Of a DNA stretch of 64,000 bases, positions 2,720 through 60,829 are shown in pieces. The stretch is from Escherichia coli (GTDB taxonomy: Bacteria > Pseudomonadota > Gammaproteobacteria > Enterobacterales > Enterobacteriaceae), in NCBI RefSeq assembly GCF_050320075.1, contig NZ_CP190018.1; one strand, given 5' to 3'. Positions within the stretch are counted from its first letter, which is position 1, and every line of letters starts with the position of its first letter. A model generated the notes under the pieces. The model searched no databases and had not been told where the DNA came from. It saw only the letters and a list, made by a program, of their open reading frames with translations. Made by a program: the position numbers and the translations under genes.

Positions 2720-5350
2720 ATGAGCAAGAGCACCGCTGAGATCCGTCAGGCGTTTCTCGACTTTTTCCATAGTAAGGGACATCAGGTAGTTGCCAGCAGC
2801 TCCCTGGTACCCCATAACGACCCAACTTTGTTGTTTACCAACGCCGGGATGAACCAGTTCAAGGATGTGTTCCTTGGGCTCGACAAGCGTAATTATTCCC
2901 GCGCTACCACTTCCCAACGCTGCGTGCGTGCGGGTGGTAAACACAACGACCTGGAAAACGTCGGTTACACCGCGCGTCATCATACCTTCTTCGAAATGCT
3001 GGGCAACTTCAGCTTCGGCGACTATTTCAAACACGATGCCATTCAGTTTGCATGGGAACTGCTGACCAGTGAAAAATGGTTTGCCCTGCCGAAAGAGCGT
3101 CTGTGGGTTACCGTCTATGAAAGCGACGACGAAGCCTACGAAATCTGGGAAAAAGAAGTAGGGATCCCGCGCGAACGTATTATTCGCATCGGCGATAACA
3201 AAGGTGCGCCATACGCATCTGACAACTTCTGGCAGATGGGTGACACTGGTCCGTGCGGCCCGTGCACCGAAATCTTCTACGATCACGGCGACCACATTTG
3301 GGGTGGCCCTCCGGGAAGTCCGGAAGAAGACGGCGATCGCTACATTGAGATCTGGAACATCGTCTTCATGCAGTTCAACCGCCAGGCAGATGGCACGATG
3401 GAACCGCTGCCGAAGCCGTCTGTAGATACCGGTATGGGTCTGGAGCGTATTGCTGCGGTGCTGCAACACGTTAACTCTAACTATGACATCGACCTGTTCC
3501 GCACGCTGATCCAGGCGGTAGCGAAAGTCACTGGCGCGACCGATCTGAGCAATAAATCGCTGCGCGTAATCGCTGACCACATTCGTTCTTGTGCGTTCCT
3601 GATCGCGGATGGCGTAATGCCGTCCAATGAAAACCGTGGTTATGTACTGCGTCGTATCATTCGTCGCGCAGTGCGTCACGGCAATATGCTGGGCGCGAAA
3701 GAAACCTTCTTCTACAAACTGGTTGGTCCGCTGATCGACGTAATGGGCTCTGCGGGTGAAGACCTGAAACGCCAGCAGGCGCAGGTTGAGCAGGTGCTGA
3801 AGACTGAAGAAGAGCAGTTTGCCCGTACTCTGGAGCGCGGTCTGGCGCTGCTGGATGAAGAGCTGGCAAAACTTTCTGGTGATACGCTGGATGGCGAAAC
3901 GGCTTTCCGTCTGTACGACACCTATGGCTTCCCGGTTGACCTGACGGCTGATGTTTGTCGTGAGCGCAACATCAAAGTTGACGAAGCTGGTTTCGAAGCA
4001 GCAATGGAAGAGCAGCGTCGTCGCGCGCGCGAAGCCAGCGGCTTTGGTGCCGATTACAACGCAATGATCCGTGTTGACAGCGCATCTGAATTTAAAGGCT
4101 ATGACCATCTGGAACTGAACGGCAAAGTGACCGCGCTGTTTGTTGATGGTAAAGCGGTTGATGCCATCAATGCAGGCCAGGAAGCTGTGGTCGTGCTGGA
4201 TCAAACGCCATTCTATGCGGAATCCGGCGGTCAGGTTGGTGATAAAGGCGAACTGAAAGGCGCTAACTTCTCCTTTGCGGTGGAAGATACGCAGAAATAC
4301 GGCCAGGCGATTGGTCACATCGGTAAACTTGCTGCGGGTTCTCTGAAAGTGGGCGACGCGGTGCAGGCTGATGTTGATGAGGCTCGTCGCGCCCGTATTC
4401 GTCTGAATCACTCCGCAACGCACCTGATGCACGCTGCGCTGCGCCAGGTTCTGGGTACTCATGTATCGCAGAAAGGTTCACTGGTTAACGACAAAGTGCT
4501 GCGCTTCGACTTCTCACACAACGAAGCGATGAAACCAGAAGAGATTCGTGCGGTCGAAGACCTGGTGAACGCACAGATTCGCCGTAACTTGCCGATCGAA
4601 ACCAACATCATGGATCTCGAAGCGGCGAAAGCGAAAGGTGCGATGGCGCTGTTCGGCGAGAAGTATGATGAGCGCGTACGCGTGCTGAGCATGGGCGATT
4701 TCTCCACCGAGCTGTGTGGCGGTACTCACGCCAGCCGCACTGGTGATATTGGTCTGTTCCGCATCATCTCTGAATCGGGTACTGCTGCAGGCGTTCGTCG
4801 TATCGAAGCGGTAACCGGAGAAGGCGCTATCGCCACCGTTCATGCAGACAGCGATCGCTTAAACGAAGTCGCGCATCTGCTGAAAGGCGATAGCAATAAT
4901 CTGGCTGATAAAGTGCGCTCAGTACTGGAACGTACGCGTCAGCTGGAAAAAGAGTTACAACAGCTTAAAGAACAAGCTGCCGCACAGGAGAGCGCAAATC
5001 TTTCCAGTAAGGCAATTGATGTTAATGGTGTTAAGCTGTTGGTTAGCGAGCTTAGCGGTGTTGAGCCGAAAATGTTGCGTACCATGGTTGACGATTTAAA
5101 AAATCAGCTGGGGTCGACAATTATCGTGCTGGCAACGGTAGCCGAAGGTAAGGTTTCTCTGATTGCAGGCGTATCTAAGGACGTCACAGATCGTGTGAAA
5201 GCAGGGGAACTGATTGGTATGGTCGCTCAGCAGGTGGGCGGCAAGGGTGGTGGACGTCCTGACATGGCGCAAGCCGGTGGTACGGATGCTGCGGCCTTAC
5301 CTGCAGCGTTAGCCAGTGTGAAAGGCTGGGTCAGCGCGAAATTGCAATAA
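2720..5350 (+). CDS. alaS: Alanine--tRNA ligase
   Basis: 876-aa [27 protein letters not shown].., class II aaRS; synteny. Confidence 0.98.
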
Positions 5351-5803: not shown

Positions 5804-6086
5804 ACCCCTCAAAATATCTCCTTCACTCCATTGTCTTTTCGCTTTACTCCCGTTCATTCAACTTAAGTCTCCATTTTTTTGCATTACTGCTATCTGACAG
5901 ACCTCCGTTTTTCTGTTGATAAAACACTCTTTTTGACGTTTTTACAGACTAATTGAGCGTGAAGTGTGCAAACGATAAAAGTGTGGGAAAAATTGTTTGA
6001 CTTATAAGTCTCAGAAAGTAATATGTGCGCCACGCAGCGACGATGAGCGATAAACAAGTTCTTCGAAGCACTCGTAAGAGGCGTGT

Positions 6087-6179
6087 GGTGAGGTGGCCGA
6101 GAGGCTGAAGGCGCTCCCCTGCTAAGGGAGTATGCGGTCAAAAGCTGCATCCGGGGTTCGAATCCCCGCCTCACCGCCA
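6087..6179 (+). tRNA. serV: tRNA-Ser (anticodon GCU)
   Basis: 93-nt sequence GGTGAGGTGGCCGAG..CGCCTCACCGCCA with long variable arm, anticodon loop CUGCUAA, 3' CCA. Confidence 0.95.
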
Positions 6180-6182
6180 TTT

Positions 6183-6259
6183 GCATCCGTAGCTCAGCTG
6201 GATAGAGTACTCGGCTACGAACCGAGCGGTCGGAGGTTCGAATCCTCCCGGATGCACCA
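6183..6259 (+). tRNA. argV: tRNA-Arg (anticodon ACG), copy 1
   Basis: 77-nt GCATCCGTAGCTCAGCTGGATAGAGTACTCGGCTACGAACCGAG..GGATGCACCA. Confidence 0.95.
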
Positions 6260-6370
6260 TATTCTACGTACTTTCAGCGATGAAGGTATGGAAGAGGTGG
6301 CGGTAATAACCGCAGGCACCAGGGAGGATAACGTTGCTTTAGCAACGGCCCGAAGGGCGAGCCGCAAGGC

Positions 6371-9627: not shown

Positions 9628-9700
9628 GAAAAAGGCCACTCGTGAGTGGCCAAAATTTCATCTCTGAATTCAGGGATGATGATAACAAATGCGCGTCTTT
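9628..9700 (-). ncRNA. micA: MicA (SraD) Hfq-dependent small RNA
   Basis: Minus strand reads GAAAGACGCGCATTTGTTATCATCATCCCTGAATTCAGAGATGAAATTTTGGCCACTCACGAGTGGCCTTTTT, ending in a terminator hairpin; sits between gshA and luxS. Confidence 0.85.
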
Positions 9701-9769
9701 CATATACTCAGACTCGCCTGGGAAGAAAGAGTTCAGAAAATTTTTAAAAAAATTACCGGAGGTGGCTAA

Positions 9770-49090: not shown

Positions 49091-51424
49091 TCAGGCTGTT
49101 GCAGGGTCGTCACATTTTGGCAGCCAGTCGCCGTAGCTTTCCTCTTTCAGCGTCAGGTTGGTCTGTATCCCCTGTTTGGTATGGCGCTTCTCGTAATTCA
49201 GTCCGTATTCCTTCAGCATCACCGGCAGCCCCAGCCCGAACATTTTCAGACTGAGTACGTTCCGGTAGCCGTTTGCCTCCATGTAGGCCAGATAGGCGTG
49301 ATAGAGGTATTTACGGTAATTGCGCGGGATGATGCTGGCGTTCCCCATATACATGCCGCTGGTCTGCGGCAGGGTTTCCAGATAGCCGATAAAATCAAAC
49401 GTCGGGTCGGCATCCCGTTTGATGTTCAGCGCCTCGTCTGAGTTCTGCTGGGACTGAAGCAGTGACCGGGCGAGCATCGGGTCGCTGAACTTCTGCATCA
49501 GGTGACGCACGATGACCGCCAGCTCGCGGGTGATTTTGTCCTTAAGCTGCGGGTCGCGCTCCTGCGGGGCTATCTGTTCCGGGAAGTGAATAATCACCCG
49601 CCGGCGTGACACGCCGCCGCTGCGGTCGGTGAAGCGCATCGGGTTATTGTTCACGGCCAGAATTACCGCCGGGATATGCGTGGAGTATGCATCCCGGTAT
49701 TTCGGGTCAACGGACACCGCATCGCCGCCGGTGATGGCCTTGAGTCCGGCACCGTCGCCGCTCCATTTTTCCTGGTCCGGCAGGCGTATCAGTGAGAAGC
49801 CAGTTAACGCGGCACGTTCACGCGGGGATTCCAGCGTCTCGATGGTGGCCGACGTGGCGTTATCCTCACCGGCCAGCAGGGTGGCTATTTCGGCCATGAT
49901 ACTTTTGCCGCTGCCGCCGGGACCGGTCACCTCCAGAAAGAGCTGCCAGTCGTAGCGGTTTGCCAGCACCATAAACAGTGCGGCCAGAATCACGTCGCGT
50001 TTTTCCGCACGACCACCGGCGGCACGGTCAAGCCAGCGCCAGAACGCGGGGGCGTGGGTTTCCAGCGTTTCCCCTTCCACCGGCGGGGTGAAATCCACAT
50101 CGCACAGGGTGCGCATCCAGTGTGACGGACTGTGCGGGTGGAACGTGCCGCTCTGCGTGTCGAGCACGCCGTTACGAAAGCCAATCAGGCGGCGGGAGGG
50201 GGCTTCCTGCTGCGGAATAATCAGCTTCAGGGTGTCCACCACGGAGGCCACCTTCCCGGAGGAGAACGGCGCGCGCAGACGCTGAAACAGCCCGGCCACA
50301 TCCCGGGCAAAGTCCTGTGGTGGCAGCACCTTCCAGACACCATTTTCATAACGGGACAGAAGCTGGCCGTTGGCATCAACCGCGAGCGCCTCGCCGTAAT
50401 GCTCATAGATACGCATGGCCTTTTCGCTGGTACTCATGGCGGAAAACTCCGCTTCGCTCATGGTGTCGAACGGGCTTTCAGCCGGTGGCCGGATGGCATC
50501 ATAAATGGCCTTACGGGTGGCTTCCCCGCCGTACTGCGTGAAGGCATCATTCCAGTCACCGAAGACCGGCGGCAGGGCAACAACACCTTCACACGCATCT
50601 GCGGCTGCGGCGGCTTTTTTCTGGCCGTCACCGCTGAGGTCACGGTCAGCAGCAAGGACAATCTGACAGGCCGGATGCTTCTGCCGGGCAAGGCTGGCCA
50701 GAGAAAGGAGATTCACGGAAGAAAGCGCCACCATCACCGTTTCACCGGTCAGGTGATGCACGGTAAGTGCGGTCGCGTATCCCTCCGCTATCCACAGACG
50801 TTTTCCGGCCTGATTCTGTCCTTCAAGGGTGTGACAGGTGCCCCTGACCTGTCCGCCTTTCAGGGTGCGCTTACGGCCGTCAGCACTGATTAACTGAAGG
50901 TTAACCAGTTCGCCGCTGTCGTCATACAGTGGCACCACAAGGTCACCGGCGCGCCAGCTCACGCCACCGGCTCTGTGTGTGCCGGTCAGCATCCGGCATT
51001 CCCGGCCGGGAAAGCCCTTGCGGGTCAGGTAGGCGTTACCGGTTCCGGGACGGGTTTTCGCCATCAGGGTTTGTGCCAGTGCGGCGGCGTTCTTCCGGGC
51101 AGCGTCTGTTTCAGCACCGGCGGCGGTCGTCACTGCCGGGTCAGCCGGGGGCAGGCTGCCGGTCACGGCAGCCACCTTTGCGGCCGCGTCGGACGGGGAA
51201 ACACCAAACACCTTTTCAACCAGTTTCAGGCCGTCACCGGCACCACACTGATTGCAGTACCAGGTGCCGCGCCCCTCCCTGTCATCAAAACGGAAGCGGT
51301 CACTCCCGCCACAGACCGGACAGGGCTGATGACGGTTCTTCAGCACCTGAATCCCCAGCGCCGGGAGAATACGCGGCCAGTGGCCGAGCGCATGGCTGAC
51401 GGTGGCGGTTACGTTCATTTTCAT
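49091..51424 (-). CDS. P4 alpha-like primase/helicase (replication protein)
   Basis: 777-aa ORF; N-terminal zinc motif CPVCGG..YCNQCG, toprim-like region, central Walker A GPGGSGKS; strong SD AAGGAG upstream. Confidence 0.9.
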   Translation of the reverse strand: MKMNVTATVSHALGHWPRILPALGIQVLKNRHQPCPVCGGSDRFRFDDREGRGTWYCNQCGAGDGLKLVEKVFGVSPSDAAAKVAAVTGSLPPADPAVTTAAGAETDAARKNAAALAQTLMAKTRPGTGNAYLTRKGFPGRECRMLTGTHRAGGVSWRAGDLVVPLYDDSGELVNLQLISADGRKRTLKGGQVRGTCHTLEGQNQAGKRLWIAEGYATALTVHHLTGETVMVALSSVNLLSLASLARQKHPACQIVLAADRDLSGDGQKKAAAAADACEGVVALPPVFGDWNDAFTQYGGEATRKAIYDAIRPPAESPFDTMSEAEFSAMSTSEKAMRIYEHYGEALAVDANGQLLSRYENGVWKVLPPQDFARDVAGLFQRLRAPFSSGKVASVVDTLKLIIPQQEAPSRRLIGFRNGVLDTQSGTFHPHSPSHWMRTLCDVDFTPPVEGETLETHAPAFWRWLDRAAGGRAEKRDVILAALFMVLANRYDWQLFLEVTGPGGSGKSIMAEIATLLAGEDNATSATIETLESPRERAALTGFSLIRLPDQEKWSGDGAGLKAITGGDAVSVDPKYRDAYSTHIPAVILAVNNNPMRFTDRSGGVSRRRVIIHFPEQIAPQERDPQLKDKITRELAVIVRHLMQKFSDPMLARSLLQSQQNSDEALNIKRDADPTFDFIGYLETLPQTSGMYMGNASIIPRNYRKYLYHAYLAYMEANGYRNVLSLKMFGLGLPVMLKEYGLNYEKRHTKQGIQTNLTLKEESYGDWLPKCDDPATA

Positions 51425-51438
51425 GGTGTTGTTCTCCT

Positions 51439-51759
51439 TCAGTGCAGTACCGGCGCTTTTATGTGACGGGCACAGAGTTCATCCATCACAACCAGCCCGA
51501 GAAAGGACAGCGACGGCGCGGCCTTCAGGGGGCCGGATTCCATTAAATCTTCCAGCAGGGCACAGGCTATCTGACGCCCTTTTTCCTCACCGTGCTGGCG
51601 CAGATAAAAGCCTTCCAGCTCAGCGGCGATGGCCGCCTCCAGTGATTCAAGGGTGAGATGCGGGTAGCGGTGCTGACGTTCGCACACGGTCAGCCAGGCA
51701 CAGGCGACAGCGCGACGGTAAAGGGCAGCGCGTAAGACGGGCGGTAAGGGTGTTTTCAT
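51439..51759 (-). CDS. 106-aa protein upstream of alpha (P4 orf106/Cnr-like by position and size)
   Basis: ORF with GGAGG SD 7 nt upstream; ends 14 bp before the alpha start; functional name is from recalled P4 gene order only. Confidence 0.6.
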
Positions 51760-51894
51760 TTGCTTTCCTCCCTGTGACAGATGACTGCATTCCGTGCCGG
51801 TTGCATTAACTGATAAGGCATATCTGCGTCTCCTGAAGACGTGCGTATCCCTGCGCGAATACGCACATTTAATTTTTCGGGTGTCGTTTTTTAA

Positions 51895-52350
51895 TTACAG
51901 ATAATTGCGGTAACTGTTATCCGGGGTGATTTCCGGGTCAGACTCCGTGCGGGGAATTTCCCGCCATTCCCGCGCCACCGGTGCCGCCCGGCTGACCGGA
52001 ACAGGGGCCTGCGGGTAAATATCCAGATATTTCTCCCGCCATTTCTGTAATTCCGGGTCTCCGGCCATTTCTTTCAGTACCGCATGCCGGTTTACGGGGC
52101 TGCGTTTAAACAGGTCAGGACGGTCACAGGTAAATTCCCGCAGAAAACGCCCCAGCGGGATGTCTGTGGTGCGTCCGTCAGCGAGGATACGCACAAGGAT
52201 ACTGAATTTACGGCGGTACGGGTTCCAGACAATGTCCGGGCAGCGGTACGGCATTTCCCACGGAATACCGTCTTCCAGAATGCCGACCACGGCCACATCG
52301 GGAAAACCGGCAGAACGGTAAATCTCACCGGGCTGGGGAAAATCAAACAT
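51895..52350 (-). CDS. 151-aa hypothetical protein (P4 orf151-like)
   Basis: Start ATG overlaps the stop of the upstream gene (ATGTTTGA); same operon. Confidence 0.6.
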   Translation of the reverse strand: MFDFPQPGEIYRSAGFPDVAVVGILEDGIPWEMPYRCPDIVWNPYRRKFSILVRILADGRTTDIPLGRFLREFTCDRPDLFKRSPVNRHAVLKEMAGDPELQKWREKYLDIYPQAPVPVSRAAPVAREWREIPRTESDPEITPDNSYRNYL

Positions 52351-52630
52351 GCGTCCTGTCTCCCCGGTCTTTCTGCTGGGCGAGAAAATCGCGGCACAGG
52401 CCTTTGGCTTTCAGCTCATTCAGCACAAAATCAATATCTTCATTCAGGTAGCTGAAAATATGCGGAATGTAGAGCTGATGCAGGCCGGAGAGTTCACGGT
52501 GAATCAAATCACCCCCAACAAACTGGGATACGGCGCTGGCGCGGTTGAGCTTATGGTAAGCCTCAATGCTGAGGTGTTCACGGGCGTCATGACGCGCTGA
52601 GACGGTCTGAGGGGCTTTTTTATTACGCAC
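52343..52630 (-). CDS. 95-aa hypothetical protein, GTG start (possibly P4 epsilon-like)
   Basis: Track ORF 52343..52915 has an implausible N-terminus overlapping the upstream gene; GTG at 52630 is preceded by GGAGG at 6-nt spacing, giving [28 protein letters not shown].. Confidence 0.5.
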
Positions 52631-53222
52631 GGGACACCTCCACCACCGGCAGACGGGCAGCAAGGGAGAGCACATAGTCACGGACAAGGGAACGGCGGGC
52701 ACTGCGTTCATCACCGGCGACGGTGCGAAGCATACAGATACGGGGATGACGGTCTGCGCGACGGACAGCCGCAAACACAAAGACAAATTCAGGGTGTGAG
52801 GGGGTAAGGGTTGTAGCCATGATGGCAGCCTCCTGTGAATAGCAAATAACGCTATCGCCGGAGTTCTCACGCTCGATGGCGATAGCCCAGACGGGGGTGA
52901 GAATACCGGCTTCACAGGATACCGGCCAGCCCGGAGGCTGCCCCGCCTGAGCTACCATTGACTCTGCGGCATAATGAGCGGACGCGGGCAGGATGCACGG
53001 AATGCCATCTGCACGACTGACCACACACCACACCATAATCTGGCGCTCTGTGGCATTGATTGCGACACAAAAAAAGACGCGTGGCGCGTCATATGTCGCC
53101 TGTGAATTGCTCGGGTTCTCACGCCCGGCTGCCGATTTTGCGGCAGCGGAAAAACTATATCCGCAAATGCCGGAAAAAGGCAAGCCAGAAAAAGGGACTT
53201 TTTGCAGAGCGGGCATCATCAT
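52623..53222 (-). CDS. 199-aa hypothetical protein (P4 orf199-like)
   Basis: ATGATGATG at 53222-53214 overlaps the vis stop (ATGA coupling); track ORF 52623..53267 extends into vis in another frame. Confidence 0.5.
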
Positions 53223-53485
53223 GCGTCGTACCCCCGTTTGCGTCCGGCAATGCGCCCGGCCATCCATGCGGTGACTTCAGAGTGCAGCCAGGCCACATTT
53301 TTACCGCCAAGACTCACCTGCGGCGGAAATTCCCCTTTACGGATGAGTTCATAGATGGTCGAGCGTGACAGGCCGCACAGGTGCATCACTTCCGGCAGAC
53401 GTAAAAAACGCTCCTGCGTGATGTCCGGCAGCGGCATCAGTGGCGTCACAGGGGCGGGAGACGGGGAAGAAAAAACAGCTTGCAT
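53219..53485 (-). CDS. AlpA/Vis-family phage regulator (excisionase-like HTH), 88 aa
   Basis: ..[44 protein letters not shown].. AlpA-type HTH; first gene of the leftward operon. Confidence 0.8.
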
Positions 53486-53587
53486 CGGGCTACCTCGTTA
53501 ATGTCCATACAGCACCGGATAAGTCCGTCCGGCTTCGGGTAGCGCTTTATTTTGTGAATATTTTCAGCAGACGCAACAGGGGGGATT

Positions 53588-53605
53588 TGTTCCGGCAGTC
53601 TTACA
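53588..53605 (-). promoter_or_regulatory. TGT-N12-ACA dyad (Ogr/Delta activator-type box) upstream of the vis-alpha operon
   Basis: TGTTCCGGCAGTCTTACA about 100 bp upstream of the vis start; dyad geometry as in P2/P4 late promoters. Confidence 0.45.
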
Positions 53606-53764
53606 ATGGCTGTGTATTTTTTGTTCATCTCCACTTAAAGTCATTTAAAGCCACTTAAAGCAATTCGTAATTTTTATAGTGAAATACAAATCGTTTTTTC
53701 TTATTCATTCCCGGCGAATTAATAAAAACAAACAGTAATAAACAGCACAAAAAGCCCATCAACG

Positions 53765-53869
53765 GGTGAACAGTGGTGAACAGACGGTGAACAGTCATTA
53801 CTGCGATTGTTCACCCTTTAACTTACTGTATTACTTATCTTTTTTATTAAGGTGAACAGAGGTGAACAG
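53765..53869. repeat. Iteron cluster (GGTGAACAG x5 direct, 1 inverted), ori-like
   Basis: GGTGAACAG at 53765, 53775, 53786, 53851, 53861; inverted TGTTCACC at 53808-53815; same 8-mer as the cluster at 48948-49040. Confidence 0.8.
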
Positions 53870-53948
53870 TAAAATATAAAAAAAACAAACAGTAAGCCGG
53901 TTTTTCCTGCGACCTTTTCCTGGCTTGCCGGTCTGAGGATGAGTCTCC

Positions 53949-53966
53949 TGTGTCAGGGCTGGCACA
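53949..53966 (+). promoter_or_regulatory. TGT-N12-ACA dyad (Delta/Ogr box) of the sid promoter
   Basis: TGTGTCAGGGCTGGCACA centred ~80 bp upstream of the sid ATG. Confidence 0.45.
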
Positions 53967-54038
53967 TCTGCAATGCGTCGTGTTGTTGTCCGGTGTACGT
54001 CACAATTTTCTTAACCTGAAGTGACGAGGAGCCGGAAA

Positions 54039-54773
54039 ATGTCTGACAACACCATCCCTGAATATCTGCAACCCGCGCTGGCACAACTGGAAAAGGCCAG
54101 AGCCGCCCATCTTGAGAACGCCCGCCTGATGGATGAGACCGTCACGGCCATTGAACGGGCAGAACAGGAAAAAAATGCGCTGGCGCAGGCCGACGGAAAC
54201 GACGCTGACGACTGGCGCACGGCCTTTCGTGCAGCCGGTGGTGTCCTGAGCGACGAGCTGAAACAGCGCCACATTGAGCGCGTGGCACGCCGGGAGCTGG
54301 TACAGGAATATGACAATCTGGCCGTGGTGCTGAATTTTGAACGTGAACGCCTGAAAGGGGCGTGTGACAGCACGGCCACCGCCTACCGGAAGGCACATCA
54401 TCACCTGCTGAGTCTGTATGCAGAGCATGAGCTGGAACACGCCCTGAATGAAACCTGTGAGGCGCTTGTCCGGGCAATGCATCTGAGCATCCAGGTACAG
54501 GAAAATCCGCTCGCCAACACCACCGGCCATCAGGGCTACGTCGCGCCGGAAAAGGCTGTCATGCAGCAGGTGAAATCATCGCTGGAGCAGAAAATTAAAC
54601 AGATGCAAATCAGCCTCACCGGCGAGCCGGTTCTCCGGCTGACCGGACTGTCAGCGGCAACACTCCCGCACATGGATTATGAGGTGGCAGGCACACCGGC
54701 ACAGCGCAAGGTGTGGCAGGACAAAATAGACCAGCAGGGAGCAGAGCTTAAGGCCAGAGGACTGCTGTCATGA
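54039..54773 (+). CDS. sid: P4 Sid-like capsid size-determination (external scaffold) protein, 244 aa
   Basis: Start MSDNTIPEYLQPALAQLEK.. inside track ORF 54021..54773; coiled-coil-rich; stop overlaps the delta start (ATGA). Confidence 0.8.
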   Translation: MSDNTIPEYLQPALAQLEKARAAHLENARLMDETVTAIERAEQEKNALAQADGNDADDWRTAFRAAGGVLSDELKQRHIERVARRELVQEYDNLAVVLNFERERLKGACDSTATAYRKAHHHLLSLYAEHELEHALNETCEALVRAMHLSIQVQENPLANTTGHQGYVAPEKAVMQQVKSSLEQKIKQMQISLTGEPVLRLTGLSAATLPHMDYEVAGTPAQRKVWQDKIDQQGAELKARGLLS

Positions 54774-55270
54774 TTTACTGCCCGTCGTGTGGACATGTTG
54801 CTCACACCCGTCGCGCACATTTCATGGACGATGGCACCAAGATAATGATTGCACAGTGCCGGAATATTTATTGCTCTGCGACATTTGAAGCGAGTGAAAG
54901 CTTTTTCTCTGACAGTAAAGATTCAGGAATGGAATACATTTCAGGCAAACAGAGATACCGCGATTCACTGACGTCGGCCTCCGGCAGTATGAAACGCCCG
55001 AAAAGAATGCTTGTTACCGGATATTGTTGTCGGAGATGTAAAGGCCTTGCGCTGTCAAGAACATCGCGGCGTCTGTCTCAGGAAGTCACCGAGCGTTTTT
55101 ATGTGTGCACGGATCCGGGCTGTGGTCTGGTGTTTAAAACGCTTCAGACCATCACCCGCTTCATTGTCCGCCCGGTCACGCCGGACGAACTGGCAGAAAA
55201 CCTGCATGAAAAACAGGAACTGCCGCCAGTACGGTTAAAAACACAATCATATTCGCTGCGTCTGGAATGA
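54770..55270 (+). CDS. P4 Delta-like late-gene activator (tandem Ogr-type zinc fingers), 166 aa
   Basis: Two Cys4 motifs (CPSCGH..CRNIYC and CCRRCKG..CTDPGCG). Confidence 0.85.
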   Translation: MIYCPSCGHVAHTRRAHFMDDGTKIMIAQCRNIYCSATFEASESFFSDSKDSGMEYISGKQRYRDSLTSASGSMKRPKRMLVTGYCCRRCKGLALSRTSRRLSQEVTERFYVCTDPGCGLVFKTLQTITRFIVRPVTPDELAENLHEKQELPPVRLKTQSYSLRLE

Positions 55271-55343
55271 GGGCTGCCGGTTAACACCGGCCGTCGCCAC
55301 ACACCGTATTTTTATTCTTCAGCATGATGAGAAAGAGATAACG

Positions 55344-55916
55344 ATGGAAAGCACAGCCTTACAGCAGGCCTTTGACACCTGTCAGAATAACAAAGCAGCA
55401 TGGCTGCAACGCAAAAATGAGCTGACTGCGGCCGAACAGGAATATCTGCGGCTTCTGTCAGGAGAAGGCAGAAACGTCAGTCACCTGGACGAATTACGCA
55501 ATATTATCGAAGTCAGAAAATGGCAGGTGAATCAGGCCGCCGGTCGTTATATTCGTTCGCATGAAGCCGTTCAGCACATCAGCATCCGCGACCGGCTGAA
55601 TGATTTTATGCAGCAGCACGGCACAGTACTGGCGGCCGCACTGGCACCGGAGCTGATGGGCTACAGTGAGCTGACGGCCATTGCCCGAAACTGTGCCATA
55701 CAGCGTGCCACAGATGCCCTGCGTGAAGCCCTTCTGTCCTGGCTTGCGAAGGGTGAAAAAATTAATTATTCCGTACAGGATAGCGACATTTTAACGACCA
55801 TCGGATTCAGGCCTGACGCGGCTTCGGTGGATGACAGCCGTGAAAAATTCACCCCTGCGCAGAACATGATTTTTTCGCGCAAAAGTGCGCAACTGGCATC
55901 ACATCAGTCTGTGTAA
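55344..55916 (+). CDS. psu: P4 Psu-like polarity suppression / capsid decoration protein, 190 aa
   Basis: 190-aa ORF following sid and delta; lengths 244/166/190 match my recollection of P4. Confidence 0.8.
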   Translation: MESTALQQAFDTCQNNKAAWLQRKNELTAAEQEYLRLLSGEGRNVSHLDELRNIIEVRKWQVNQAAGRYIRSHEAVQHISIRDRLNDFMQQHGTVLAAALAPELMGYSELTAIARNCAIQRATDALREALLSWLAKGEKINYSVQDSDILTTIGFRPDAASVDDSREKFTPAQNMIFSRKSAQLASHQSV

Positions 55917-55950
55917 AACTCCCCGAAAATCCGCCCGTTTTTACTGAAAA

Positions 55951-55983
55951 AAGCCATGCATCGATAAGGTGCATGGCTTTGCA
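55951..55983 (+). terminator. Intrinsic terminator after psu
   Basis: Hairpin GCCATGCATCGATAAGGTGCATGGC followed by TTT. Confidence 0.6.
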
Positions 55984-56080
55984 TGCGTTTTCCTGCCTCA
56001 TTTTCTGCAAACCGTGCCATTCCCGGCGCGGTCTGAGCGTGTCAGTACAACTGCATTAAAACCGCCCCGCAAAGCGGGCG

Positions 56081-56099
56081 GGCGAGGCGGGGAAAGCAC
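56081..56099. other. cos site (P2/P4-type 19-nt cohesive end sequence)
   Basis: GGCGAGGCGGGGAAAGCAC inside a GC-rich palindromic context (AAACCGCCCCGCAAAGCGGGCGGGCGAGGCGGGG..); matches the P2/P4 cohesive end as I recall it. Confidence 0.7.
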
Positions 56100-59094: not shown

Positions 59095-60282
59095 TTAAAG
59101 AGTGGTTTGCAATCCCCACCAATTCATTAACTCTATACGTTGTTCTAAATAGGTACTTCTATTGTAAGCTTTTCGAACCTCATTCCTCTCGGAATGCGCC
59201 AATGCTGCTTCAATAACATCAGGATTAAATTCTGCTTCGTTCATTGCCGTACTGGCAATTGATCTTAGTCCATGGGCCACTAACTTACCGCCATAACCTA
59301 TTCTCTTCAAGGCAGCGTTTGCCGTCTGACTGTTCATCGGCTGTTTTGGATCGTTTCTGCTCGGGAAAATATGTTCACGGTGACCACTGATAGGCTTCAT
59401 TACTTCCAAAATACCTAAAGCCTGAGGTGACAAAGGGACAATGTGTTCACGTTTAGCCTTCATTCGTTCGGCGGGAATCGTCCAGAGTTTGGCCTCGAGA
59501 TCGATCTCGACCCACCGAGCACCAGAAGCCTCAGAAGGGCGCACTAGGGTCAGGAGCTGCCACTCGATAAGACAGCGAGTCGGAACAGACAGATTCGACA
59601 TTACCAGAGAACGCATCAGCTTAGGTAATTCTTCGGGTCGTAGCGTGGGCATATTCTGCTTTTTGGGTTTCTCAAATGCCATTCCAACACCTGATGCTGG
59701 ATTTGCATCAATTAGACCAGTGTTTACGGCATAAATCATTATCTCGTTAATGCGCTGTACCAGACGACGTACCGTCTCTAGCGCGCCACGTGCTTTGATT
59801 GGTTCGAGGGTTTCAACAAGTGTTCGGGCTTTGATTTGCTGAACAGGGAGCTCACCGATGGCAGGTAATACATCTTTTTCCAGGGAACGCCAAATGTCTT
59901 TCGCGTAATCAGGGGTAACGCTTTTGCTTTTTATCTGGAACCAGTTGGTCGCAACAGTCGAAAAAATACTGTCTAGAGCTATCTGTTGTTGTTCTTCGAT
60001 AAATTCAGCTTGAACTTGTGGGTCTATACCATTAGCCAACAAAGCAAGGTAATCCGCTCTTAACCGTCGAGCATCAGCAAGTGAAAGGGCGGGGAAAGCA
60101 CCAAGCCCCATCATTGTCCGCTGTTTTGTTGCTGGACGTTGATAACGGAAACGCCACAACTTCTTACCGTTCGTTTTAACGAGCAGAAAAAGGCCATCGC
60201 CATCATGTAACGTTAGATCCTTTTCTAACGCTTTAGCGCGCAGAACTTCGGTGTTGGTCAGGGGGCGTGTTGTTCTTGCCAC
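59095..60282 (-). CDS. P4-family tyrosine integrase
   Basis: 395-aa ORF, GTG start with AAGGAG SD; N-terminal arm-binding-like LTNTEVLRAKALEKDLTLHDGDGLFLLVKTNGKKLWRFRY; C-terminal HGLRS..R..Y catalytic region; adjacent to the ssrA 3' end. Confidence 0.9.
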   Translation of the reverse strand: MARTTRPLTNTEVLRAKALEKDLTLHDGDGLFLLVKTNGKKLWRFRYQRPATKQRTMMGLGAFPALSLADARRLRADYLALLANGIDPQVQAEFIEEQQQIALDSIFSTVATNWFQIKSKSVTPDYAKDIWRSLEKDVLPAIGELPVQQIKARTLVETLEPIKARGALETVRRLVQRINEIMIYAVNTGLIDANPASGVGMAFEKPKKQNMPTLRPEELPKLMRSLVMSNLSVPTRCLIEWQLLTLVRPSEASGARWVEIDLEAKLWTIPAERMKAKREHIVPLSPQALGILEVMKPISGHREHIFPSRNDPKQPMNSQTANAALKRIGYGGKLVAHGLRSIASTAMNEAEFNPDVIEAALAHSERNEVRKAYNRSTYLEQRIELMNWWGLQTTL

Positions 60283-60304: not shown

Positions 60305-60352
60305 GGTATACGTGTTTAGGTATACATCCTACCGTATACCTAAACGTATACC
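60305..60352. repeat. Four GGTATAC(G)/CGTATACC motifs in the int promoter region (putative integrase arm-type sites)
   Basis: GGTATACG 60305-60312, GGTATAC 60319-60325, CGTATACC 60333-60340 and 60345-60352; same motif as at 48840-48859. Confidence 0.5.
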
Positions 60353-60466: not shown

Positions 60467-60829
60467 TGGTGGAGCTGGCGGGAGTTGAACCCGCGTCCGA
60501 AATTCCTACGTCCTCGGTACTACATGCTTAGTCAGTCTTTACATTCGCTTGCCAGCTGCGGACGGACACGCCACTAACAAACTAGCCTGATTAAGTTTTA
60601 ACGCTTCAACCCCAGGCAGGGCTTCCACGCGATCTCTTTTGGGTTTGACCTCTCTTGATCCCCGTCCTAAGAGCGGAGGCTAGGGAGAGAGGGCTCTAAG
60701 CAGGTTATTAAGCTGCTAAAGCGTAGTTTTCGTCGTTTGCGACTATTTTTTGCGGCTTTTTACGAGGCCAACCGCCCCTCGGCATGCACCTTGGGTTTCG
60801 CAAATCCCGTCGAATCCAGAATCAGCCCC
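60467..60829 (-). ncRNA. ssrA: tmRNA (SsrA), 363 nt
   Basis: Minus strand reads GGGGCTGATTCTGGATTCGACGGGATTTGCGAAACCC..; tag ORF GCAAACGACGAAAACTACGCTTTAGCAGCTTAA (ANDENYALAA*); 3' end ..GCCAGCTCCACCA. Confidence 0.97.

Follow-up and report, generated by a model that had tools for sequence, protein, structure and literature searches.

A probable P4-type bipartite replication origin, with a single crr unit, in a satellite prophage at ssrA of Escherichia coli

Dissection of the replication system of satellite phage P4, comprising ori1, crr and the alpha protein, goes back to the 1980s, and a large proportion of E. coli genomes carry P4-like satellites. Alpha is reported to be both helicase and primase and to drive bidirectional theta replication, and P4 replication is said to be independent of DnaA, DnaB, DnaC and DnaG. 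Through its C-terminal domain, alpha reportedly attaches to the type I iterons of both ori and crr, looping the intervening DNA, and Cnr is said to raise the affinity of alpha for the iterons and to limit copy number. Minimal ori1 reportedly spans ~123 bp, with its six iterons and 35-bp AT-rich region all needed, while one crr unit is said to be sufficient. A further site, ori2, is an internal 36-bp stretch within alpha. In two recent papers, crr is presented as the region that replication requires in cis, one of them terming it essential, and the GenBank annotation of P4 also states the cis requirement. Surveys of P4-like satellites (PMC8628076, PMC9122126) are protein-based and, in the sections available, do not score ori or crr.

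The distribution of the octamer TGTTCACC was examined across the window (the whole stretch of E. coli DNA that was analysed, 64 kb in length) by counting exact matches on both strands, which returned 14 copies. Dinucleotide-preserving shuffles averaged 2.21 copies and yielded 7 at most, with 14 being reached in 0 of 100. A sequence-only reading of the same DNA had reported six copies at 53765-53869 and four to six at 48948-49040, including an inverted pair, the two clusters lying ~4.8 kb apart and bracketing a primase operon. The six copies are all exact (53765, 53775 and 53786 on the minus strand, 53808 on the plus strand, 53851 and 53861 on the minus strand; 53765-53868 in all). The count for the second cluster was a fair one, there being three exact copies at 48958 (plus), 49019 (minus) and 49033 (plus), two with one mismatch at 48949 (TGTTCACA) and 49001 (TATTCACC), and a further stretch at 49010-49017 (GGTGAAGG) that is readable as a two-mismatch copy. 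The inverted pair is formed by the copies at 49019 (minus) and 49033 (plus), GGTGAACAgtggatTGTTCACC, and the distances and operon position likewise agree with that reading: the clusters are separated by 4725 bp edge-to-edge, or ~4.8 kb centre-to-centre, and flank an operon whose last gene encodes a 777-aa primase-helicase (49091-51424, minus strand).

Enrichment of the octamer proved to be confined to these two sites, as had been anticipated. Indeed, when the 64-kb window was scanned in sliding windows of 150 bp, exact copies numbered six and three at the two clusters and at most one elsewhere. Taking the remaining five copies as the Poisson background (about 8e-5 per base), the probability of six copies in 104 bp is ~4e-16, and that of three copies in 83 bp is ~5e-8. 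Chance enrichment was rejected on the basis of the shuffles and the 150-bp local density, the observed enrichment lying far beyond chance. The broader reading, in which the octamers are either chance clusters or sites bound by something other than an initiator (an operator, for example, or the arm sites of an integrase), is accorded practically no credence, given also that the octamers coincide with annotated replication repeats of P4; the integrase arm variant is considered below with the ends of the element. The sole other local excess of near matches to the iteron in the window is at 59331-59451, inside the integrase gene, where four one-mismatch iterons fall within 120 bp (TGTTCATC, TGTTCACG, TGGTCACC, TGTTCACG); this excess is probably due to chance or codon-driven.

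Comparison with P4 (X51522) revealed 98.56% identity between window positions 48925-56080 and P4 4471-11624, with just two one-base indels, both non-coding. The labels ori-like and crr-like that had been attached to the clusters turned out to be apt, since 53765-53868 corresponds to P4 ori1, and 48949-49040 to P4 crr, base for base with the annotation. The features at the ori1 side are as follows.

53631..53660, no strand: 'ori type 2 repeats', three in tandem and each of 10 bp, identical to those annotated at P4 9176-9205
53765..53868, no strand: ori1, six type I iterons TGTTCACC/GGTGAACA, identical to P4 9310-9413
53816..53850, no strand: AT-rich stretch of 35 bp between iterons 4 and 5, 29/35 (83%) A+T, identical to P4

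The six octamers at P4 9310-9413 are each labelled 'ori type 1 repeat' in GenBank, inside a feature described as "origin of DNA replication", and the count, order, strand and spacing of the iterons in the window all match those of P4. The spacings are 10, 11, 22, 43 and 10 bp, which are near multiples of the helical repeat. The whole of P4 9284-9422, i.e. the six iterons plus the AT-rich spacer, is unchanged in the window, with one A being added relative to P4 in a run of A residues located 9 bp beyond the final iteron. We take the AT-rich stretch at 53816-53850 to be the unwinding region of ori1. The array is positioned between ORF88/vis and sid, ~2.3 kb upstream of the start of alpha, a distance that is common to close relatives.

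Conservation at ori was examined as column identity over 72 distinct ori sequences of relatives. Iteron columns were conserved at 97.9%, columns of the 35-bp AT-rich spacer at 90.8%, other columns of the array at 80.4%, and columns of the left flank at 65.6%. The iterons are thus under purifying selection across the P4-like family, because 97.9% conservation in their columns compares with 66-80% in neighbouring ones. The ori of strain Rb-23, which is ~81% identical, has kept all six GTGAACAG cores while its flanks have diverged. In E. coli 23CRST013 (NZ_AP045773.1, locus L008, ~6000-6135), exactly one of the first three ori iterons has been lost through a 10-bp deletion, and its P4-like element, which is located at tRNA-Sec (selC), accordingly has five ori iterons, together with a two-unit crr. 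Five exact ori octamers were also observed in several IMG/VR loci.

The operon between the two clusters, which reads leftward and ends in alpha, comprises the following features.

49059..49083, minus strand: Rho-independent terminator of alpha, annotated at P4 4604-4628, zero differences
49091..51424, minus strand: alpha, a primase, SF3 helicase and origin-binding protein of 777 aa, 771/777 identical to P4 alpha
51439..51759, minus strand: ORF106, i.e. cnr, annotated at P4 6984-7304, one nucleotide difference
51895-52350, minus strand: ORF151, by comparison with P4
52343-52630, minus strand: epsilon, derepression protein, by comparison with P4
52875-52962, minus strand: CI RNA (Rfam C4 antisense RNA), above the Rfam gathering score
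53070-53147, minus strand: isrK, above the Rfam gathering score
53108-53160, minus strand: c4 a1/b1 target, above the Rfam gathering score
53219..53485, minus strand: ORF88, a helix-turn-helix regulator of the Vis/AlpA type, with which the leftward operon ending in alpha begins

By sequence, the cognate alpha protein retains the primase, the SF3 helicase and the C-terminal winged-helix domain. Residues 671-770 match PDB 1KA8, a region whose winged-helix DNA-binding nature has been described (PMC2777425), and none of the six substitutions relative to P4 alpha falls there. The cnr gene encodes the copy-number regulator of the plasmid state (PMC8628076). The RNA-based immunity circuit in the leader of the leftward operon is predicted to be intact, because the Rfam search finds C4, isrK and the c4 a1/b1 target at 52875-53160.

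Given the DNA identity with P4, the annotated repeats, the 771/777 identity of alpha and the conservation of the iterons in the family, it is highly likely that the two clusters constitute the bipartite replication origin, P4-type ori1 plus crr, of a satellite. In the mechanism known from work on P4, as applied to this element, the C-terminal winged-helix domain of alpha would bind type I iterons (TGTTCACC) in ori1 as well as in crr, joining the two sites and looping ~4.7 kb of DNA, and would then open the AT-rich stretch of ori1, serving as its own helicase and primase, with bidirectional theta replication being carried out by host Pol III. Cnr (ORF106) would restrain replication in the plasmid state, and in the prophage state the replicon would be silent under CI-RNA immunity. 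The 120-bp crr units would have been reduced from two to one by inter-unit recombination. Alpha binding and origin firing in the window element are points that we infer by analogy.

The clusters are assigned, from the surrounding sequence, to a P4-like satellite prophage of 11.7 kb integrated at ssrA, the remaining features of which are listed below.

48764..48778, no strand: att core, second 15-bp copy, at the far end, 147 bp beyond crr
54039-54773, plus strand: sid, helper-exploitation gene
54770-55270, plus strand: delta, helper-exploitation gene
55344-55916, plus strand: psu, helper-exploitation gene
56081..56099, no strand: cos, 19-nt cohesive end ggcgaggcggggaaagcac, by homology with P4
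56350..59076, minus strand: P-loop (STAND-like) NTPase of 908 aa, hotspot cargo between cos and int
59095..60282, minus strand: tyrosine integrase of CP4-57 IntA type, NCBIfam PRK09692, 581 bits (cut-off 434)
60467..60481, no strand: att core TGGTGGAGCTGGCGG, 15 bp, at the 3' end of ssrA, by repeat match
60467-60829, minus strand: ssrA (tmRNA)

The genes int, alpha, epsilon, alpA/ORF88, sid, delta and psu occur in P4 order, together with cos, where the homology crosses the end and start of the P4 record before ending 31 bp further on. Excision would give a circle of 11,717 bp, a size compatible with the small capsid (~11.6 kb), P4 itself being 11,624 bp. Nucleotide homology between P4 int and the integrase of the window was looked for and none was found. 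Five copies of the repeat CGTATACC are present in the window, where 1.2 would be expected, and they are found only beside the two att cores, at 48840-48859 and 60305-60352, in part as inverted pairs; the IntA-type integrase probably uses them as arm-type sites. This bears on the suggestion that the octamers might themselves be integrase arm sites, for which the location of the crr cluster, ~150 bp from an att core, could be cited. However, the suggestion was rejected, as the repeat specific to the ends of the element has another motif, CGTATACC, and the octamers are kept where the integrase and att site are unrelated, as in the selC-integrated element of 23CRST013.

The 908-aa NTPase gave weak Pfam matches to AAA_16 and nSTAND1 (E about 1e-3) and one marginal match but no family in PADLOC, and the NCBIfam search likewise gave no family; the gene may be an uncharacterised one of STAND type with an anti-phage role. 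The hotspot holds other cargo in relatives, 23CRST013 having a SIR2 family protein there and Rb-23 an ATP-binding protein; the concept of a variable cargo hotspot in P4 is that of PMC9122126. The chromosomal setting is that of ordinary E. coli, with recA, alaS, csrA, the gab operon, ileY and ypjA to one side and smpB to the other. The ypjA/ehaD autotransporter gene (43900-48603, plus strand) lies just beyond the att core at 48764 and, according to the Ec-U3 annotation, ypjCB, as a pseudogene, and a fragment of a recombinase are found further out; all three may be remnants of earlier ssrA islands. Additionally, ARAGORN called a tRNA-Arg(tcg) at 6203-6274 (minus strand) that overlaps a plus-strand tRNA-Arg(acg) and is probably spurious, a tRNA called as Met (CAT) at 40808-40883 (plus strand) is a tRNA-Ile in a RefSeq relative and was taken as ileY-type, and the MicA sRNA was detected at 9630-9701 (minus strand; Rfam, 83.9 bits), an ordinary chromosomal feature with luxS and gshA nearby in a relative.

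The principal departure from P4 concerns crr, for which the features are as follows.

48925..49045, no strand: crr, a single hybrid 120-bp unit with five type I repeats, by comparison with P4
48949 and 48958 (plus strand), 49001 and 49019 (minus strand), 49033 (plus strand): crr type I repeats, corresponding to P4 4494-4585

As in P4, the crr unit carries five type I repeats in both orientations and is located directly downstream of the alpha terminator, ~4.5-4.8 kb from ori. Of the two 120-bp direct repeats and 60-bp spacer, only one unit, a hybrid, is present in the window, a deficit of 180 bp (one unit plus the 60-bp spacer) relative both to P4 and to E. coli Ec-U3. In this hybrid, unit 1 of P4 contributes the left edge (…CGAAAGAAC) and unit 2 the body, and the junction falls within TGTTCACACTGTTCACCTTTC, a stretch common to both units, which reads as the signature of recombination or slippage between units. 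The earlier statement that both cis elements are intact thus holds for ori1, where P4 9284-9422 is identical, and only by half for crr, where 180 bp have been lost. Since the window is separated from Ec-U3 by about 22 substitutions in 24 kb, plus exactly the 180-bp crr segment, the deletion is judged to be recent.

It could be argued that the deletion is an artefact of assembly, with the 120-bp units having been collapsed in a genome that truly has two, and the missing segment is indeed exactly one repeat period with its junction in a stretch common to the units. However, the two units are ~87% identical to each other, i.e. too divergent for routine collapse, and complete genomes of independent origin, as well as IMG/VR contigs, show a like single-unit structure, so that an artefact seems very improbable.

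The number of crr units among relatives was examined in two ways. Using a 146-bp ori1 segment as query against 5426 complete E. coli genomes, matches were found in 1050 of them, at 1,250 places, all chromosomal. A probe for the inter-unit spacer (coverage of at least 80%) matched in 984 genomes, as against 1076 for a probe comprising the alpha-proximal unit and terminator, indicating that ~91% have a two-unit copy. Among the best 40 matches to the att-crr-alpha junction, single-unit structures were present in two only, APEC E12053 and E5, for both of which a full 2334-nt primase-helicase CDS is annotated. Their deletions and that of the window look independent, because the unit-2 background of E12053 and E5 differs from that of the window. 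A single crr unit is also present, alongside a full-length alpha, in the diverged ssrA element of strain Rb-23.

Additionally, IMG/VR loci were fetched by alpha and counted where at least 450 bp were available downstream of alpha; loci in which iteron cores were found solely at 50-140 bp past alpha were classed as 'cores only'.

Alpha ~99% identity, 28 loci: two units 27; one unit 1 (by BLAST); cores only 0; none 0
Alpha ~85% identity, 41 loci: two units 27; one unit 8 (by BLAST); cores only 4; none 2

Single-unit crr is put at 1/28 among the close loci (~99% alpha) and at ~12/41 among the distant ones (~85% alpha). Two IMG/VR loci, L062 and L079, have full-length alpha (~85%) and zero iteron cores in the 500 bp downstream of it; crr in these loci may be absent, moved or replaced. 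From these distributions, the two-unit crr is old and mostly retained, with single-unit variants that have full-length alpha recurring. The two-unit majority (27/41 at 85% alpha and ~91% of E. coli carriers) suggests selection for two units, and a single unit may work less well.

Whether the element can still replicate hinges on one crr unit being sufficient. It is predicted, with somewhat better than even confidence, that the single-unit replicon still works; one unit is likely to suffice because single-unit crr recurs in natural relatives that have full-length alpha. Conversely, the sites could be P4 ori1 and crr in a replicon that has been crippled, one unit being insufficient, such that the element is a decaying prophage without amplification or plasmid persistence. 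The loss of 180 bp of crr relative to P4 and to the 99.9%-identical Ec-U3 is in keeping with this, as is the predominance of the two-unit form in close and distant relatives alike; the deletion, being recent, may be unselected, and natural origin lesions are known in relatives, as with the five ori iterons of 23CRST013. Nevertheless, crippling is considered unlikely, given that several independent single-unit lineages keep full-length alpha and ori1, and that the rest of the element is intact. For P4, one unit is also reported to be sufficient. A further possibility, which we regard as quite doubtful, is that crr unit number is a natural, recurrent polymorphism that tunes replication or plasmid establishment, with selection keeping the two-unit form. 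Single-unit deletions would then arise repeatedly via inter-unit recombination and might possibly be favoured by cargo pressing against the small-capsid limit, the element being 11,717 bp with one crr unit and 11,897 bp with two.

On the reading that we favour, in which one unit suffices, plasmid replication after excision is plausible from the sequence, and the parts known to be needed were all found, namely alpha, cnr, ori1, one crr unit, int, ORF88 and both att cores. Efficient excision of the window element is an assumption, because ORF88/Vis is of P4 type while the integrase and att sites are not. None of the 1,250 copies of ori1 in the 5,426 complete E. coli genomes, plasmid records included, is on a plasmid, and in PLSDB the replicon was found in no genuine plasmid, the two large matches (4.8 and 5.4 Mb) being mislabelled chromosomes. 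P4-like sets were likewise all chromosomal in a published survey, which cites ~1% plasmid establishment for P4 (PMC8628076). Since the crr deletion is recent and resides in a silent prophage, selection may not yet have acted on it.

The ori1/crr/alpha system of P4 is already known, and the sole addition here is that crr has been halved, which is a minor variant occurring in nature. For annotation, the locus is of value as an apparently complete P4-type satellite at ssrA that is predicted to be probably mobilisable, and whose defence hotspot carries an uncharacterised STAND-like NTPase. Unit number in crr evidently varies in nature, and the window, with one unit, and Ec-U3, with two, provide a near-identical natural pair for probing the role of the second unit.

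Among described systems, phage P4 (X51522 / X05623) is alike in the octamer, in the type 2 repeats and in having crr just after the alpha terminator, with 99% identity in alpha and 98.6% identity in core DNA. It differs in that its crr has two 120-bp units and a 60-bp spacer, as against one unit in the window element, in that its own att core is annotated at 4078-4097, whereas the window element uses ssrA and the att sites are unrelated, and in that its hotspot holds gop/beta/cII, to which the cargo of the window element is unrelated, the integrase of the latter being likewise unrelated to P4 int. The nearest complete genome, that of E. coli Ec-U3, is 99.9% identical and has a two-unit crr. 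The cryptic prophage CP4-57 of E. coli K-12 occupies the same ssrA site as the window element and its integrase belongs to the same family, PRK09692; CP4-57 is a larger, degraded element. A more general likeness is to R6K-type origins, in which the element's own initiator binds short direct or inverted repeats, a second distant cluster is required or cis-acting, and initiator-iteron complexes control copy number; in R6K, distant iteron clusters are joined by looping mediated by the pi initiator. The window element differs in that its initiator is itself primase and helicase, and there is no sequence relationship. Finally, the P4-like satellites that have been surveyed (PMC8628076; PMC9122126) share the same core genes, chromosomal integration and a cargo hotspot by the integrase, with no essential difference, and the window element is one more member of this group.
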